From a virus (lineage: Duplodnaviria; Heunggongvirae; Uroviricota; Caudoviricetes): 11,882 nt of DNA. The position numbers and the translations under genes were made by a program. Location: IMG/VR virus record IMGVR_UViG_2548876958_000016, one strand, 5' to 3'. Below, one piece after another: positions 6,501 to 11,882 of this stretch. Below the pieces are notes generated by a model. The model was not told the origin of the DNA. It searched no databases and was given only the letters and a program-made list of their open reading frames with translations. How positions within the stretch are numbered: position 1 is the first letter of the stretch; each line of letters starts with the position of its first letter.

Positions 6501-6707
6501 ATGGCTGAAGAGAAAAAAGGCGGTGTTTCGGTGTACATAAGCCCCGAAATCGTGGAGGTGCTCAAGCAGCGCCACAAAAAAAACTATGAAGCTGGCGTTG
6601 CGGCTGGACTGGATCCGCTGATGACGCCGGAGCCGTCGATAGGTTCACTTGTACGCTCTTATTTACTTGCGGCGCTTGGGATGCATAAAAATTATGGGGG
6701 TGAATAA
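6501..6707 (+). CDS. Small protein (68 aa), first gene of the capsid operon; possible RHH/CopG-like fold
   Basis: Translation MAEEKKGGVSVYISPEIVEVLKQRHKKNYEAGVAAGLDPLMTPEPSIGSLVRSYLLAALG...: a beta-strand (VSVYIS) followed by two helices resembles a ribbon-helix-helix, but this is tentative. Stop overlaps the capsid start (TAATG at 6705-6709). Confidence 0.5.
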   Translation: MAEEKKGGVSVYISPEIVEVLKQRHKKNYEAGVAAGLDPLMTPEPSIGSLVRSYLLAALGMHKNYGGE

Positions 6708-7762
6708 TGGCAGGCAAAGCAACGGCACTTAACACTAACCAGCTTTTCATGTACCTGAATCGCGGGGATATTGCGGATTTTAAATTCAGCCCTCTGTTTA
6801 CCACGCTGTTTTTCCCGAACGTGGCGACATTCAACACGCAGGACATCATGTTAGATAACCTGGATATTGAAGAAGTCACTATGTCGGCGTTTTGTTCGCC
6901 TATGGTTGGCAGCCAGGTTCAGCGCGATAAAGGGTACGAAACCAGCATTATCCGCCCTGGCTACATGAAGCCAAAACACGAAATCGATCCATTAAAAACA
7001 ATAATGCGCATGGCTGGAGAAGATCCGGCACAGCTTAACGATCCTACCTACCGCCGTATGCGCCTGATTACTGGCAACATGCGCCGCCAGATAAACGCCA
7101 TTAAGGCACGCGTTGAATGGCTGGCGGTGAATGCGGTAACGACCGGAAAAAACATCATTGAGGGCGAAGGCATAGAACGCTATGAAATCGACTGGAAGAT
7201 ACCGGAAAAAAACATCATAGAGCAGGCCGACGGTAAAAAATGGTCTGAGCAGGATAAAGACATACACGACCCAATATATGACATTGAACTATACGCAGAT
7301 CAGGCAGGTTGCCCCGCCAACGTCATGATTATGGGCGTTGATGTATGGCGCATGTTACGCAGCTTTAAAAAATTCCGTGAACTGTACGATCTCTCCCGTG
7401 GTTCAGAATCCGCCGCAGAGCTGGCATGTAAAAACCTGGGCGAAGTGGTGAGCTTTAAAGGCTATCTTGGTGATCTGGCCCTTATCGTCTATTCCGGCAA
7501 ATACACTGACAGCGACGGCACAGAAAAATATTTCCTTGAGCCTGATTTGCTTGTCCTGGGCAACACCAACAATAAAGGGCTGGTGGCCTATGGTGCGATT
7601 ATGGATCAGGACGCAGTAAGAACGGGGGCAACGCAAAACATGTACTACCCGAAAAACTGGATTGAGGACGGAGATCCGGCGATTGAGTACGTGCAGACGC
7701 ACAGCGCACCGCAGCCGGTTCCGGCAGATATTCGCAAATTTGTTACTGTCAAAATTGCTTAA
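6707..7762 (+). CDS. Major capsid protein, lambda gpE family (351 aa)
   Basis: SD GGGGG 6 nt upstream. Extended similarity to lambda E as I recall it: FKFSPLFTTLFF (lambda FKFDPLFLRLFF), RPGYMKPKHEIDP (TPGYVKPKHEVNP), DPTYRRMRLI (DPAYRRRRII), VSFKGYLGDLALIVYSGKY (VSYKGMYGDVAIVVYSGQY), LGNTNNKGLVAYGAIMDQDA (LGNTQARGLRTYGCIQDADA), YPKNWIEDGDPA (YPKNWVTTGDPA); length is close to lambda E (341 aa). Confidence 0.9.
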   Translation: MAGKATALNTNQLFMYLNRGDIADFKFSPLFTTLFFPNVATFNTQDIMLDNLDIEEVTMSAFCSPMVGSQVQRDKGYETSIIRPGYMKPKHEIDPLKTIMRMAGEDPAQLNDPTYRRMRLITGNMRRQINAIKARVEWLAVNAVTTGKNIIEGEGIERYEIDWKIPEKNIIEQADGKKWSEQDKDIHDPIYDIELYADQAGCPANVMIMGVDVWRMLRSFKKFRELYDLSRGSESAAELACKNLGEVVSFKGYLGDLALIVYSGKYTDSDGTEKYFLEPDLLVLGNTNNKGLVAYGAIMDQDAVRTGATQNMYYPKNWIEDGDPAIEYVQTHSAPQPVPADIRKFVTVKIA

Positions 7763-7773
7763 CGGGGGATTCT

Positions 7774-8109
7774 ATGGACACTCCATACATTGAGTTATTT
7801 GCAGGCAGTCAGCAGGTCGCCACGACGCTGGTACATTTTGCCGCTGATGCTGGCGTTATTCAGGAATTTACCCCGCTGATGCTGGCGGACAATGGCGAGT
7901 TTAAGCCGTGGGATGGTCAGGAATCTGGCAAGGCTGTTTATCTGACTTCGTATCCTGTGGACACGTCAAAGCAGAAATCAGCACAGTGTTACAAGACGGG
8001 GATATTCAATATTGCCGCCGTTAACTGGCCTGAGAGCGTCGACACCGATGCGAAAAAATGCGCCGCCTTTGCGGGTTCCGGCGTATCCGTTCAGCCGCTG
8101 GCCCGATAA
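7774..8109 (+). CDS. Head decoration protein, lambda gpD family (111 aa)
   Basis: SD GGGGGA upstream. TPLMLADNGEFKPWDGQ (lambda TPLMLDTSSRKLVAWDG), YKTGIFNIAAVNWPE (YKSGTFRYEDVLWPE), KKCAAFAGSGVSV (KKRTAFAGTAISIV); length matches gpD (110 aa). Gene order is E then D, the reverse of lambda. Confidence 0.85.
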   Translation: MDTPYIELFAGSQQVATTLVHFAADAGVIQEFTPLMLADNGEFKPWDGQESGKAVYLTSYPVDTSKQKSAQCYKTGIFNIAAVNWPESVDTDAKKCAAFAGSGVSVQPLAR

Positions 8110-8121
8110 GCAGGGGGAACG

Positions 8122-8535
8122 ATGGCAACGAATGAAAGCATCATGACGCTACCGCTGGCGAGTAAATTTAAAGCCGAAGCGCGGGCAATGGCTGACAGAG
8201 GTTTATCAACCTATGAGGCCGTATATCAACTAAACAAACTGGAAGAGCAGGACAAGCCGCGCGCTGATGCGATTATGGCGCTTCATGAGCATAAAGACTA
8301 TCAGCCGCTGTTACGTGCAATGGCAAACGTGCCATGTATTAGCGTCGATAATGCTCGTGAAATCCTGAACATGACCATAGAGCAGGAGCGCCCAAAGGTT
8401 GCACCAGAGCTTACCGCAGCCTTTGAAAACTTTATGGACATGCACAGCCCGCAAGCCGTATCAGCTGGCATGGCATACGATGGCAGAAACCAGGGCGATG
8501 ACGGCGACATCGATCGCATACTGAAAACCATCTGA
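8122..8535 (+). CDS. Hypothetical protein (137 aa), last gene of the capsid operon
   Basis: SD AGGGGGA (8112-8118), ATG 8122. Translation MATNESIMTLPLASKFKAEARAMADRGLSTYEAVYQLNKLEEQDKPRADAIMALHEHKDYQPLL... No family recognised. Its position after the capsid and decoration genes suggests a morphogenesis or packaging accessory role. Confidence 0.6.
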   Translation: MATNESIMTLPLASKFKAEARAMADRGLSTYEAVYQLNKLEEQDKPRADAIMALHEHKDYQPLLRAMANVPCISVDNAREILNMTIEQERPKVAPELTAAFENFMDMHSPQAVSAGMAYDGRNQGDDGDIDRILKTI

Positions 8536-8540
8536 GACAA

Positions 8541-8564
8541 GGCCGGAGAAATCCGGCTTTTTTT
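8541..8564 (+). terminator. Intrinsic terminator (copy 3 of the repeated hairpin)
   Basis: GCCGGA (8542-8547), loop GAAA, TCCGGC (8552-8557), T-run 8558-8564; almost base-for-base identical to copy 1. A second hairpin ACGGGTCC/GGACCCGT (8566-8573 and 8584-8591) follows and overlaps the start of cos. Confidence 0.7.
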
Positions 8565-8581
8565 ACGGGTCCTTTCCGGCA

Positions 8582-8640
8582 TATGGACCCGTTACGGGGC
8601 GGCGACCTCGCGGTTTTTCGCTATTTATGAGCCTTTTCAG
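8582..8640 (+). other. cos site 1: lambda-type cosN with a divergent cosB-side flank, oriented toward the small terminase gene
   Basis: GTTACGGGGCGGCGACCTCGCGGTTTTTCGCTATTTATGA (8591-8630) matches, with one mismatch, my recollection of the lambda cohesive-end region (GGGCGGCGACCT then CGCGGGTTTTCGCTATTTATGA); the 12-nt cohesive-end sequence sits at 8597-8608. After TTTATGA the sequence diverges from lambda cosB. Confidence 0.75.
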
Positions 8641-8702
8641 GGGGGTGGTGGTGGTTTTGTTGTTTGCTCTATCTTTATGAATGAAAAGGGAAAGATGCAA
8701 AC

Positions 8703-8740
8703 AATACACCAACCTGAAGCAGTAATTAAGTTGGTGTATT
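8703..8740. repeat. 11-bp inverted repeat immediately upstream of the small terminase start codon
   Basis: AATACACCAAC (8703-8713) and GTTGGTGTATT (8730-8740) separated by a 16-nt loop, ending 1 nt before ATG 8742. Candidate island-specific TerS-binding or translational control element. Confidence 0.45.
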
Positions 8741-8741
8741 A

Positions 8742-9284
8742 ATGAAATCGCACCTGATGAACAAAAAAAACATGGCGAAAAGCTGCCGTGTAAGTGCGAC
8801 AGCGTTCGACAAGTGGGGAGTGACTCCCGTTGAACGTAAAGGCCGTGAGGCGTTTTACGATGTTGCCAGCGTGATAGACAATAGGGTTAACAATGCAATT
8901 AGCCAGCTTACAAACGACAAAGGCGATATTGATGATGATGAACTCTTACGAGTCAGGATCAGATTACTGACAGCACAGGCGGAGGCGCAGGAACTTAAAA
9001 ACGAGCGCGATCGCGGTGACGTGATTGATACTGAGTTTTGCCTGTACGCGCTTTCAAAGCTGGCGAGTCAGATTTCATCAATCATGGACAGCCTCCCGCT
9101 TACTATGCAAAGGAGCTTCCCACAGATTACCCACGCCATGCTGGATAGGCTTAAAAGGGAAGTGGTTAAAGCCTGTAATGCCAGTGCCAGAGTTGCCGAC
9201 AACCTCCCACAGATACTGGCTGATTACTTGAAAGAAACAACCGGAAACGTACCGGAAAAGTTGCTACAGAAGAAAGGCGAGTAA
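8742..9284 (+). CDS. Terminase small subunit, lambda Nu1 family (180 aa; true start may be ATG 8757)
   Basis: Strong similarity to lambda Nu1 as recalled: LLTAQAEAQELKNERDRGDVIDTEFCLYALSKLASQISSIMDSLPLTMQRSFP (lambda LTRAQADAQELKNARDSAEVVETAFCTFVLSRIAGEIASILDGLPLSVQRRFP) and N-terminal MNKKNMAKS...FDKW (lambda MEVNKKQLADIFGASIRTIQNW). The C-terminal region that interacts with the large subunit in lambda looks conserved; the N-terminal DNA-recognition region is more diverged. Confidence 0.85.
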   Translation: MKSHLMNKKNMAKSCRVSATAFDKWGVTPVERKGREAFYDVASVIDNRVNNAISQLTNDKGDIDDDELLRVRIRLLTAQAEAQELKNERDRGDVIDTEFCLYALSKLASQISSIMDSLPLTMQRSFPQITHAMLDRLKREVVKACNASARVADNLPQILADYLKETTGNVPEKLLQKKGE

Positions 9285-9299
9285 CAGACGCGCAATTAT

Positions 9300-9489
9300 T
9301 GAACAAAACTGAGAAACGACATGAAAGCGTCATAAATCGCCATTTTAGATGATTACCGTGTCGTTTCTTTTTATTGTGTATCTATTTAAAAACAAATAGT
9401 TATGTTCGAGAAGTACCGACATGCTTTTTCCAGAAAAATTTTCATAAACAGATAAAAACCGCGAGGTCGCCGCCCCGTAACGGGCCATA
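9300..9489 (-). other. cos site 2: inverted lambda-like cos (cosN plus cosB-like flank) on the minus strand, pointing back toward terS
   Basis: Reverse complement of 9454-9489 equals the site-1 core. Read on the minus strand it continues GGGCGGCGACCTCGCGGTTTTTATCTGTTTATGAAAATTTTTCTGG..., then CATAACTATTTGTTTTTAAATAGATAC, AAAAGAAACGACA and GTCGTTTCTC. These resemble lambda TTTATGAAAATTTTCCGG, the I1-region CATAACTTAATGTTTTTATTTAAAATAC and R-site-like GTCGTTTCC elements, from memory. Confidence 0.75.
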
Positions 9490-9539
9490 ATTCCAGGAAG
9501 GACCCGACGACACCAGACTATCAGAGCGATGGGGGCACA

Positions 9540-9821
9540 ATGACAGAAGCCGAACTACTGGGATTAATCCGCCGCGTCGCCGGAATCAGCCAGCAGCATG
9601 ACGAACAGGCCACACAGCCGGACAGCGTGACCGCTGAAAATTATGTGCGTGTTGTAGCGGAAGTGATGCGCCGTGATGGTATAGAACTTAATGGCGTTGA
9701 TATGCGCAACATACGGAACCGCGTTCTTGAAATGCTGGCCTACAATCGCCGCGTTGAACTGTATCGGGAGAAAGAAAAAATAACGTACCACTGGAAGAAG
9801 CCGGAATGGCTGCGGCGGTAA
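9540..9821 (+). CDS. Hypothetical protein (93 aa) in the terminal accessory position of the island
   Basis: SD GGGGG (9531-9535), 4-nt spacer. Translation MTEAELLGLIRRVAGISQQHDEQATQPDSVTAENYVRVVAEVMRRDGIELNGVDMRNIRNRVLEMLAYNRRVELYREKEKITYHWKKPEWLRR. No family recognised. Confidence 0.5.
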   Translation: MTEAELLGLIRRVAGISQQHDEQATQPDSVTAENYVRVVAEVMRRDGIELNGVDMRNIRNRVLEMLAYNRRVELYREKEKITYHWKKPEWLRR

Positions 9822-10421
9822 CTTGCTGATATTCCCGATAACGCAAAATTGCGCTGGCTACATCCCTCACATCTGAGGACTGTTAACCAGAAGGCCGGAA
9901 TATATTCACAAACTACGAAATTTTCGTAGTTTAATTAATGGTCAGATTAATCGCTAACCCGCTGATATTTTCGGAAACCTCAATTTGAGGAAGTCGGAAG
10001 CGTCACCCTTCATATTCTGAATGGTCATAATGACCACGCAGACCATCAAGGCAACCACAACGAACATCGTTACGGTTGGAGCTTTTACCCCACTGGGGGA
10101 AAGGTATTACGATAATCATAACACCTACCGAACAGGTAAAACCCACCAGCCTGATTAACAGTTAACCGGAAAAAAATCCGGTAGCCCCGTTATGGGGATC
10201 CCCATATCGACATTAACGCCCCTCATGAATTGGTGCGCTTCCCCCTGGAAAGATTACCCGCCTGTATATTTCTTGTGTCTATTTGTTCCACGTTGTTTCA
10301 TACAGTGCACCGAACGGTGTAGTTAATGGTGTAGTCAATTTGCTGTTTTTAGCACTTTTTGCAGTGTGGGTTGTTTAATTAAATCAATGGTTTGCCTTGC
10401 TGTGGTGATAAAAGGACATAT

Positions 10422-11882
10422 TTATTCATCTTTCGGCGCAGAATGCTGGCGACCAAAAATCACCTCCATCCGCGCACCGCCCAGCATGCTCTCTCCGGCG
10501 ACGATTTTACCCTCATATTGCTCGGTGATTTCGCGGGCTACCGCCAGCCCTACACCTTGCCCAGGGCGTAAAGTATCAACCCGTTGACCACGGTCGAAAA
10601 TGACCTCTCGCTTGCTTAATGGAATACCGGGGCCATCATCCTCGACCACAATATAGAGATGCTCGTCGGTTTGCCTTGCAGAAATTTCGACAAACTCGAG
10701 GCAATATTTACAGGCATTATCCAGCACGTTGCCCATCACCTCGACAAAATCGTTCTGCTCACCGACAAAGCTGATCTCTGGCGAAATATCGAGAGAGATA
10801 TTGACCCCTTTGCGTTGATACACTTTGTTCAGCGCTGAGGTGAGATTGTCCAGCAGTGGGGCGACCGGATGCAGCTCGCGGCTGAGCAATGTCCCGCCGC
10901 GCATACTGGCACGATGCAGGTAGTAGCCAATTTGCTGTGAAATGCGGCTGATTTGCTCCAGCATTACCGGCTCAGCATCACTGACGCTCATCTTTTCACT
11001 ACGCAGAGAACGCAGCGTACTTTGCAGCACCGCCAGTGGCGTTTTCAGACTATGGGTCAGGTCGGTGAGCGTCGTACGGTATTTGTCGTAACGTTCGCGT
11101 TCACTTTTTAACAATCGGTTCAGGTTTCGTACCAGACTGGTCAGTTCTCGCGTTGTGGCTGGATTGAGCAATTCGCGGTTATGTTCTTCCAGTTCGCGGA
11201 CTTCTTTTGCCAGGGCTTCGATGGGGCGTAAACTCCACCAGGCGGCGACCCACAGCAGCGGGATCACTAACAGCAGATTGGCTGAGAGCACATAGATAAA
11301 CCAGCTCCAGACCATATAGGAACTTTTTAGCTCCACCGGAATGGTATCCACCACCACAATGGTTAATTTTGGCATCCGCGATGTTGCCGGGTAGACGTTT
11401 ACTGCCACCGAGTGGGTCATCTCCGCGTCGTCATCATCTTCCCGCACTTCCTGCAACTGTTGCTGTATCGAATGATCTCCACTCAGCAAGAGGCTGGTAT
11501 CGTTAACATCCGCTTCAATTTCATGAAAACCATTCGATTTCAGCCAGTCAGGCTGGATCATCTTCATCAGCCAGGGCACGTCACGTTGCGCCCATAAAAG
11601 CTGCCCGTTCTCATCATAAATTAGCGTCATGGTGGGGCTTTGCTTGTCGATATTTTCGGGTAACTCGACATGCAACTTATTGTTTTCCCACTTCGCAAGG
11701 GTATAGAACAGATTGCTCTCGCCACGTAACAGCCGAAACGTAGTTTTATCGAAACTGACGCTATAACCGATCAGCGCGACCATTCCGTAGGCAAGCGAAA
11801 GCACCAGTACTACCGCAGCCGTTGCCAACAGAAAACGTACCCGCAGTGAGAGCGGGAAAAAAAGACGCAGTAATTTTTTCAT
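10422..11882 (-). CDS. phoQ: Sensor histidine kinase PhoQ of the PhoP/PhoQ two-component system (486 aa, complete)
   Basis: Translation begins [40 protein letters not shown]..., has the acidic periplasmic patch EDDDDAE, the phospho-acceptor His box ([12 protein letters not shown]) and G-box motifs (DDGPGIP, GQGVGL). It matches E. coli PhoQ as I recall it in length and sequence. The window ends exactly at its start codon. Confidence 0.97.

Follow-up and report, generated by a model that had tools for sequence, protein, structure and literature searches.

The closest described relative of the locus analysed here is EcCICFT073, the prototype of the Gram-negative cos-type phage-inducible chromosomal islands (PICIs), whose two cos sites were published as cos1 and cos2 in 2018 and 2019 (Fillol-Salom et al., ISME J, PMC6092414; Mol Cell, PMC6739421). 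Placed on a plasmid, either cos1 or cos2 leads to transfer by lambda and phi80; in the island itself, deletion of cos1 lowers transfer, deletion of cos2 raises it, and the double deletion abolishes it (PMC6092414). The island protein RppA binds the small terminase subunit (TerS) of the helper phage, and the complex recognises the cosB of cos1 but neither that of cos2 nor that of the phage, and it is the cos1 cosB alone that RppA boosts (PMC6739421). The relative orientation of the two sites goes unmentioned in the text of both papers and of the review of Murialdo and Feiss (2022). We analysed a stretch of 11,882 nt, IMG/VR virus record IMGVR_UViG_2548876958_000016 (hereafter the window), in which an earlier note had described two inverted lambda-type cosN sites on either side of a Nu1-like small terminase gene. 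By its sequence the window is a PICI of the EcCICFT073 family, lying between roxA (ycfD) and phoQ.

The earlier note held that convergent cos sites around a terminase gene are not standard for cos-type satellites. This was wrong, since EcCICFT073 has the same layout around rppA: in the coordinates of the fetched CFT073 island sequence, cosN is found on the plus strand at 11059 and on the minus strand at 11798, around rppA at 11160-11594. The two-cos bracket is not new, but a published feature of this satellite family. What is undescribed, as far as the searched literature shows, is the substitution of terS for rpp, the modular make-up of cos2 with its diversity and its canonical phage architecture, the exclusively inverted orientation of the two sites and the natural inversions of the cassette.

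The ends of lambda were taken from NC_001416 and both window sites were aligned to them. The 12-mer GGGCGGCGACCT, which is letter for letter the left end of NC_001416 and the lambda cohesive-end sequence, occurs as an exact match on both strands, so that the two inverted lambda-type sites are real; two matches were obtained in none of 200 dinucleotide shuffles of the window. They lie within an inverted repeat of 72 nt (repeat search of the window; arms 82% complementary), longer than the 36-bp core noted earlier, although its perfect core is only 31 bp. The features of the bracket are as follows.

8542-8564, plus strand: terminator-like hairpin GCCGGA-GAAA-TCCGGC followed by seven T, read from the letters, directly before cosQ1
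8562-8577, plus strand: cosQ1, TTTACGGGTCCTTTCC, identical to lambda cosQ and 19 nt from cosN as in lambda (right-end alignment)
8566-8637, plus strand: left repeat arm, with cosQ1, cosN1 and proximal cosB (repeat search and alignment to the lambda ends)
8597-8608, plus strand: cosN1, GGGCGGCGACCT, exact match to lambda bases 1-12
8609-8741, plus strand: cosB1, apparently satellite-specific, with R-like boxes GGTGGTGGTT at 8647-8656, ATACACCAAC at 8704-8713 (inverted) and GTTGGTGTAT at 8730-8739
8639-9428, no strand: exchangeable cassette of cosB1, specificity gene and cosB2 (blastn of the window against the CFT073 island)
8742-9284, plus strand: terS, small terminase of the gpNu1 family, 180 aa (Pfam PF07471, PHROG 57, BLASTP against lambda Nu1)
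9285-9463, minus strand: cosB2, phage-type, with R3 at 9412-9421, R2 at 9359-9368 (inverted) and R1 at 9312-9321
9435-9506, minus strand: right repeat arm (repeat search)
9464-9475, minus strand: cosN2, GGGCGGCGACCT, exact match on the minus strand
9495-9510, minus strand: cosQ2, TCGTCGGGTCCTTCCT, 19 nt from cosN, the lambda spacing (alignment)

A cosQ-like block, CGGGTCCTTYC, stands at the lambda spacing in both arms when these are aligned to the lambda ends. The definition of cosQ used for cosQ1 is that of the supplement of PMC6092414, and the cosQ2 flank of the window is the flank of the published EcCICFT073 cos2. Both sites also share with lambda the first ~25 nt of cosB, ending in TTTATGA, past which (8630) site 1 departs from lambda. 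The earlier note had allowed that its lambda cos sequence might be wrong and that these were unrelated palindromic terminators; this is ruled out, as the 12-mer and both flanks are those of the lambda ends. A terminator scan flags the cosN palindromes solely because a T-run comes after them, and the hairpin at 8542-8564 is missing from the output of the consensus scan.

To compare the two cosB regions, we searched for an R box in direct orientation near bp 40-70 and bp 120-190 from cosN, and inverted between them. In lambda the same search returns R3, R2 and R1 at bp 53-55, 109-111 and 155-157. In cos2 it found TGTCGGTACT, AGAAACGACA (inverted) and TGTCGTTTCT at bp 55, 108 and 155, which is the lambda register, although the box sequence differs (TGTCGKT in cos2, CGTTTCC in lambda). 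Read on the minus strand, cos2 could be aligned over ~150 nt with the cos of PhiR5_1 (83% identity) and of lambda (75%), and an AT-rich, I1-like block between its R3 and R2 aligns with the I1 region of lambda; an inverted repeat, I2, was found within the cosB2 stretch by the repeat search. cos1 showed no alignment to the lambda I1 region, which is an IHF site. Its own boxes (GKTGGTG) are GGTGGTGGTT at bp 51, ATACACCAAC (inverted) at bp 108 and GTTGGTGTAT at bp 134; the triplet contains three mismatches in total and was equalled by 2 of 300 shuffles. The flanks had been described earlier as lambda-like at site 2 and non-lambda at site 1; the first of these holds, and the second is correct in that site 1 does not follow lambda, but its flank has an R3/R2/R1-like triplet of its own. 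Both cos1 and cos2 thus look like complete cos sites, which would differ in the small subunit that they admit.

An N15-type cos1 with a single R3 was also considered and ruled out: the cosN of N15, GGGCGGCGTCCG, is different, its R3 is only loosely similar, and cos1 shows the triplet. We also observed that the proposed R3 of the terS-type cos1 (window 8645-8660) reads GGTGGTGGTGG, and that the Rpp-type cos1 of CFT073 has, at an equal distance from cosN (CFT073 island 11106-11123), CACCACCACCAC, the identical motif read from the other strand. The likeness may be a coincidence or may reflect a common ancestry of the two recognition systems.

The bracketed gene, called Nu1-like in the earlier note, encodes a true gpNu1 homologue. 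Its product matches Pfam PF07471 at 1.2e-23 (84 bits against a cut-off of 30) and PHROG 57 at 1.7e-52, with residues 1-174 covered, and in BLASTP it is 35% identical to lambda Nu1 over 179 aa (E 5e-35), the C-terminal half included. The closest phage relative is gp1 of N15 (45.7%), a phage that differs from the window in its cos. The alignment to lambda Nu1 spans residues 6-166; because it begins at Met6, the ATG at 8757 is likely to be the true start, giving a product of 175 aa. Relative to Nu1 the C-terminal half is conserved and the N-terminal part, in Nu1 a winged helix-turn-helix that binds R boxes, is divergent: the N-terminus gives a gapped alignment to lambda residues 3-50, the Pfam match begins only at residue 33, and a PDB sequence search returned no match to the structure of the Nu1 DNA-binding domain. 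In Nu1, the C-terminal half serves self-association and binding of the large subunit, TerL (PMC9026076). That the gene is an Rpp was ruled out (BLASTP against RppA, E 1.3; no match to RppC at E<=1 in the PDB sequence search). A consensus scan of 8400-9700 found no sigma-70 promoter for terS, including between the hairpin at 8542-8564 and terS.

The explanation that we favour, and regard as reasonably likely, is that the island carries two packaging signals, cos1 for its own TerS together with the helper TerL and cos2 for the native helper terminase, and that the inverted layout is the only stable one. Sharing cosQ and cosN, both sites would be nickable by a lambda-type TerL; as their cosB regions differ, a different small subunit would choose each site. 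The island TerS, which keeps the TerL-binding region of Nu1, would bind the cosB1 boxes and probably recruit the helper TerL to cos1, so that concatemers of the island are packaged rightward; it would take the place of the Rpp-TerS trick of EcCICFT073. cos1 and the island TerS would then be an essential, co-inherited packaging unit, and cos2 an accessory, renewable copy of a helper-type cos (R3, an I1-like block, R2 and R1 in the lambda register), at which the unmodified helper terminase would start leftward packaging. Termination of the lambda type requires cosQ and cosN in the direction of translocation (PMC6739421); packaging that starts at either site should hence run to the next copy of that site and stop nowhere else, giving whole island units, in opposite directions for the two sites. 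In a direct pair, the cassette would be lost through packaging from cos2 to cos1 or through recombination of the repeats, and for this reason the inverted layout would be the only stable one. The shared 31-bp core may serve as a homology handle for cassette swaps, for the replacement of cosB2 by that of other phage types and for occasional inversion. The assignment of a protein to each site, the two packaging directions and the argument from stability are inferences. The dual-specificity arrangement raised in the earlier note fits this anatomy, the comparative data below and the experiments on EcCICFT073, where both sites were shown by others to be functional (PMC6092414); the interpretation in the earlier note, taken as a whole, is supported in part.

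Comparison with the CFT073 island showed where the specificity module begins and ends. The identity is ~90% up to 8638 and again from 9429, with no match between; in the same blastn, cosB1 past 8638 had no homology to EcCICFT073. Since the cassette lacks homology between flanks of ~90% identity, cosB1, the specificity gene and cosB2 form an exchangeable cassette bounded by conserved cos cores. The coincidence of the cassette boundaries with the cos cores supports the two-signal explanation. The window thus agrees with EcCICFT073 in its island family, in the roxA(ycfD)-phoQ site and in the flanking genes (gpE-like, gpD-like, 137-aa and 93-aa), in having two lambda-type cosN inverted around a packaging-specificity gene, and in a cos1 whose non-phage cosB lies beside the 5' end of that gene. 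It differs in that Rpp, a protein of 144 aa, must borrow the helper TerS, whereas the 180-aa gpNu1 homologue of the window keeps the TerL-binding half; in a cassette that is entirely non-homologous between the cos cores; and in cos2, whose alignment with phage cosB is clear, while for EcCICFT073 the authors reported that neither site had a cosB of phage type.

A scan of IMG/VR based on TerS gave 80 loci (protein identity 81-100%), and the state of cos2 could be scored in 68. In nearly all of the 80, cos1 precedes terS by ~160 nt, and the cosB1 boxes and motifs are kept there; this conservation of cos1 and cosB1 together with terS supports co-inheritance. The second site is much less constant. 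A complete inverted cos2, with a spacer of 250-269 nt, was present in 37 of the 68 loci; nine retained a truncated scar of 70 nt (half of cosN and cosQ2, cosB2 being deleted); and in 22 there was no cos2, terS abutting the next gene. None of the 68 had a second cos in direct orientation, a total absence that fits the loss of the cassette expected of a direct pair.

These losses bear on the view that cos2 is a non-functional by-product, the scar of a phage recombination that delivered or exchanged the cassette. Its breakpoints at the cos cores and a cos2 that is dispensable, and truncated or missing in many relatives, are what such a scar would leave. Where cos2 is present, however, it keeps cosQ, cosN and three R boxes in the exact lambda register across several independent classes, which points to maintenance or repeated renewal rather than decay, and the cloned cos2 of EcCICFT073 is functional (PMC6092414). 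We consider this view rather unlikely.

Islands with terS and cos1 in common differ in cosB2, for which at least three R-box classes were distinguished, each in the lambda register: TGTCGKT (the window), CAGATCC (the O157 island) and a phi4/21-like ATGTCGG; some further cos2 variants have a different cosN. The comparison with cos sites of resident prophages proposed earlier gave a divided answer. A lambdoid prophage of O157:H7 86-24 has, directly upstream of its Nu1 and A genes, a cos that is 89.5% identical to bp 1-76 of the window cos2, but the island cos2 of O157 belongs to another class than the O157 prophage cos examined, so that the match to a resident prophage is only partial. The O157-island class had a single weak match in the phage collection.

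Several further variants were seen in these relatives. Four with the same terS and cosB1 (L050, L066, L082 and L084) have, near position 2841 and ~160 nt before terS, a variant cosN in cos1, GGGCGGAAGGCG, GGGCGTCAGGCG, GGGCGGCAGACG and GGGCGGCTGACG, which suggests that these islands have adapted to helpers with a TerL that cuts another cohesive-end sequence. In L076-L079, L082, L084, L087 and L088, a cos-like element stands downstream of terS in place of cos2, with a cosQ-like GGGTCCTCC and a cosN-like GGGCGGGAGCAT, without R boxes of the lambda type; in the same relatives the start of the 93-aa gene carries a variable (ATGACC)n of 2 to 5 copies. In the island of O157:H7 NE 1092-2, the cosQ side of cos1 (652-708) has the cos2-typical GGGTCCTTCCTGGAATTATGGCCC, and the perfect inverted repeat is longer as a result. 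The presence of a cos2-type cosQ side at this cos1 is evidence of gene conversion between the arms.

The orientation of the cassette was examined by searching 5426 complete E. coli genomes, at a query coverage of at least 80%, for the native arrangement and for a query in which 8597-9475 of the window was reverse-complemented. The terS-type cassette, present in ~9% of complete E. coli genomes (O157:H7, O55:H7 and Nissle 1917 among them), was in the native orientation in 489 genomes and flipped in five (5 of 494), each time as a single full-length alignment; for the rppA-type of CFT073, 64 genomes were native and 15 flipped (15 of 79). None of the 80 IMG/VR loci carried a flipped cassette. By annotation and alignment, terS and the capsid genes are on opposite strands in the islands of PM4-5 (at tqsA/mdtJ) and 2014C-4587 (near yejO), and in WP4-S17-ESBL-08, at the roxA-phoQ site, an identical RppA (WP_000565609.1) is on the minus strand. 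At the flipped junctions the cosB flanks have moved and the cosQ flanks have stayed in place; the crossover lies within the shared core GTTACGGGGCGGCGACCTCGCGGTTTTT, and both sites are still complete cos sites afterwards. An assembly artefact is an unlikely source of the flips, given complete genomes, three integration sites, single full-length alignments and a perfect core of only 31 bp.

It had been suggested earlier that the terS cassette is invertible. Natural genomes do contain both orientations, which bears this out in part, and the bracket could then be a programmed switch, in which flipping alters the expression of terS or the direction of packaging; the flips confirmed by annotation and alignment, one of them in an island with an identical RppA at the same attachment site, speak for it. 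Against this, no invertase or recombinase was found in or beside the cassette, which holds the specificity gene only, the sole recombinase being the island integrase ~8 kb away; the PM4-5 region shares no more than 96% identity with its nearest unflipped relative; IMG/VR loci are without flips, as noted above; and, as both sites remain complete cos sites after inversion, there is no on/off state. A programmed switch is thus very unlikely, and recent or ongoing inversion of terS-type islands is unsupported, the best unflipped relative being only 96% identical. Because of the lack of an invertase and of this low identity, the inversions look like the result of occasional homologous recombination across the repeat.

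The two inverted sites might also make the cassette excisable by terminase, cleavage at cos, and not homologous recombination alone, driving inversion and the swapping of cassettes and cosB2. Cutting at both cosN would free a fragment with the same 12-nt overhang at both ends and leave the complementary overhang twice on the backbone; re-annealing of the fragment could then occur either way, or an equivalent fragment from a co-resident island or phage could take its place. We regard this as improbable.

A further alternative concerns the role of cos2 in the contest with the helper. An inverted decoy that sabotages helper packaging was among the earlier suggestions; cos2 would then be mainly an interference device, a phage-mimic site that titrates or misdirects the native helper terminase and lowers the helper yield. 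In favour of this are the fidelity with which cos2 copies a phage cos, the known interference of PICIs with helper packaging (PMC6739421) and the rise in EcCICFT073 transfer on deletion of cos2, which is expected if this site does not serve transfer (PMC6092414). However, initiation at cos2 would package island DNA anyway, which makes the effects of a decoy and of a second signal hard to separate; the double deletion abolishes the residual transfer, so cos2 does package the island (PMC6092414); and cos2 is often lost in relatives. On balance, a role mainly as a decoy seems unlikely.

Some of the same observations weigh against the two-signal explanation. It draws on sequence comparison and on experiments with EcCICFT073, an rppA-type island. 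The increase in EcCICFT073 transfer after deletion of cos2 suggests that this site is dispensable and possibly costly in the laboratory (PMC6092414), and its absence or truncation in 31 of the 68 terS-type relatives means that any benefit must be conditional. The O157-island cos2 (CAGATCC class) is unlike the one O157 prophage cos examined, so helper matching is not borne out there. The binding of the satellite TerS to the helper TerL is, moreover, suggested by sequence similarity of only 35-46%.

With lambda the bracket shares an identical cosN, a near-identical cosQ and the architecture and register of R3, R2 and R1, and terS lies downstream of cos1 as Nu1 does of cos; it differs from lambda in having two opposed sites and no terL after terS. 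The pac-type Staphylococcus aureus pathogenicity islands (SaPIs) SaPI1 and SaPIbov1 likewise use their own TerS with the helper large terminase and a satellite-specific site (PMC6739421), but package by the headful mechanism from pac and have a separate inhibitor, Ppi, whereas the window is of the cos type with a second, phage-type cos. SaPIbov4 also has two putative cos sites (as cited in PMC6092414).

The placement of the window in the EcCICFT073 family was supported by its chromosomal relatives. It matches roxA-phoQ islands in 357 complete E. coli genomes at ~97-98% identity, those of O55:H7 RM12579, O157:H7 and O111 among them, and is ~97.5% identical to the listed island EcCIRM12579 (NC_017656.1, 1438155-1449376), which, like EcCICFT073, is listed at ycfD-phoQ (supplement of Fillol-Salom et al. 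2018, PMC6092414). The RefSeq annotation of one such island gives an integrase, an AlpA-like helix-turn-helix regulator, Icd-like proteins, a RepA-family helicase, SSB and PerC, followed by a major capsid protein, a head decoration protein, a hypothetical protein, the small terminase and another hypothetical protein, and then phoQ. The window has int, an alpA-type regulator, pri/rep and perC at a PICI attachment site, with no lysis or tail genes. Around the bracket lie the following genes.

6707-7762: major capsid protein, lambda gpE-like (PF03864, 1.7e-49)
7774-8109: decoration protein, lambda gpD-like (PF02924, 1.3e-17)
8122-8535, plus strand: 137-aa gene upstream of cos1 (PHROG 1999 at 3.7e-65, PHROG 53 at 1.7e-10), conserved in EcCICFT073
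9540-9821, plus strand: 93-aa gene of unknown function downstream of cos2 (PHROG 1561 at 3.3e-57), present in EcCICFT073 and relatives
10422-11882, minus strand: phoQ, to the right of the island

The gpE-like and gpD-like genes correspond to c1499 and c1500 of EcCICFT073, whose deletion had no phenotype (PMC6092414). By its PHROG matches, the 137-aa protein weakly resembles the C-terminal, scaffold-like portion of head maturation proteases; this possibly scaffold-like gene is absent from the discussion in PMC6092414, and a survey of GTDB genomes for the protein gave no confirmed loci. The 58 nt at window 10283-10340 match, at 81% identity, the stretch immediately to the left of the integrase gene in the islands of CFT073 and NCTC9112, and are probably the attR copy at the right end of the island, ~80 nt before phoQ. 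NCTC9112 also has, besides its phoQ island, a second terS-type island (NZ_LR134079.1, ~1793851-1795620), so two related satellites of the same specificity type can coexist in one genome.

Although the element in the window is of a known kind, its comparison with relatives offers a concrete, testable answer to the question of why there are two cos sites. The comparisons indicate that this satellite family redirects packaging in two ways at the same position, either by an Rpp that hijacks the helper TerS or by a complete TerS of the Nu1 type. This is relevant to the range of helpers available to islands that spread virulence and defence genes, and to PICIs as vehicles for delivery.

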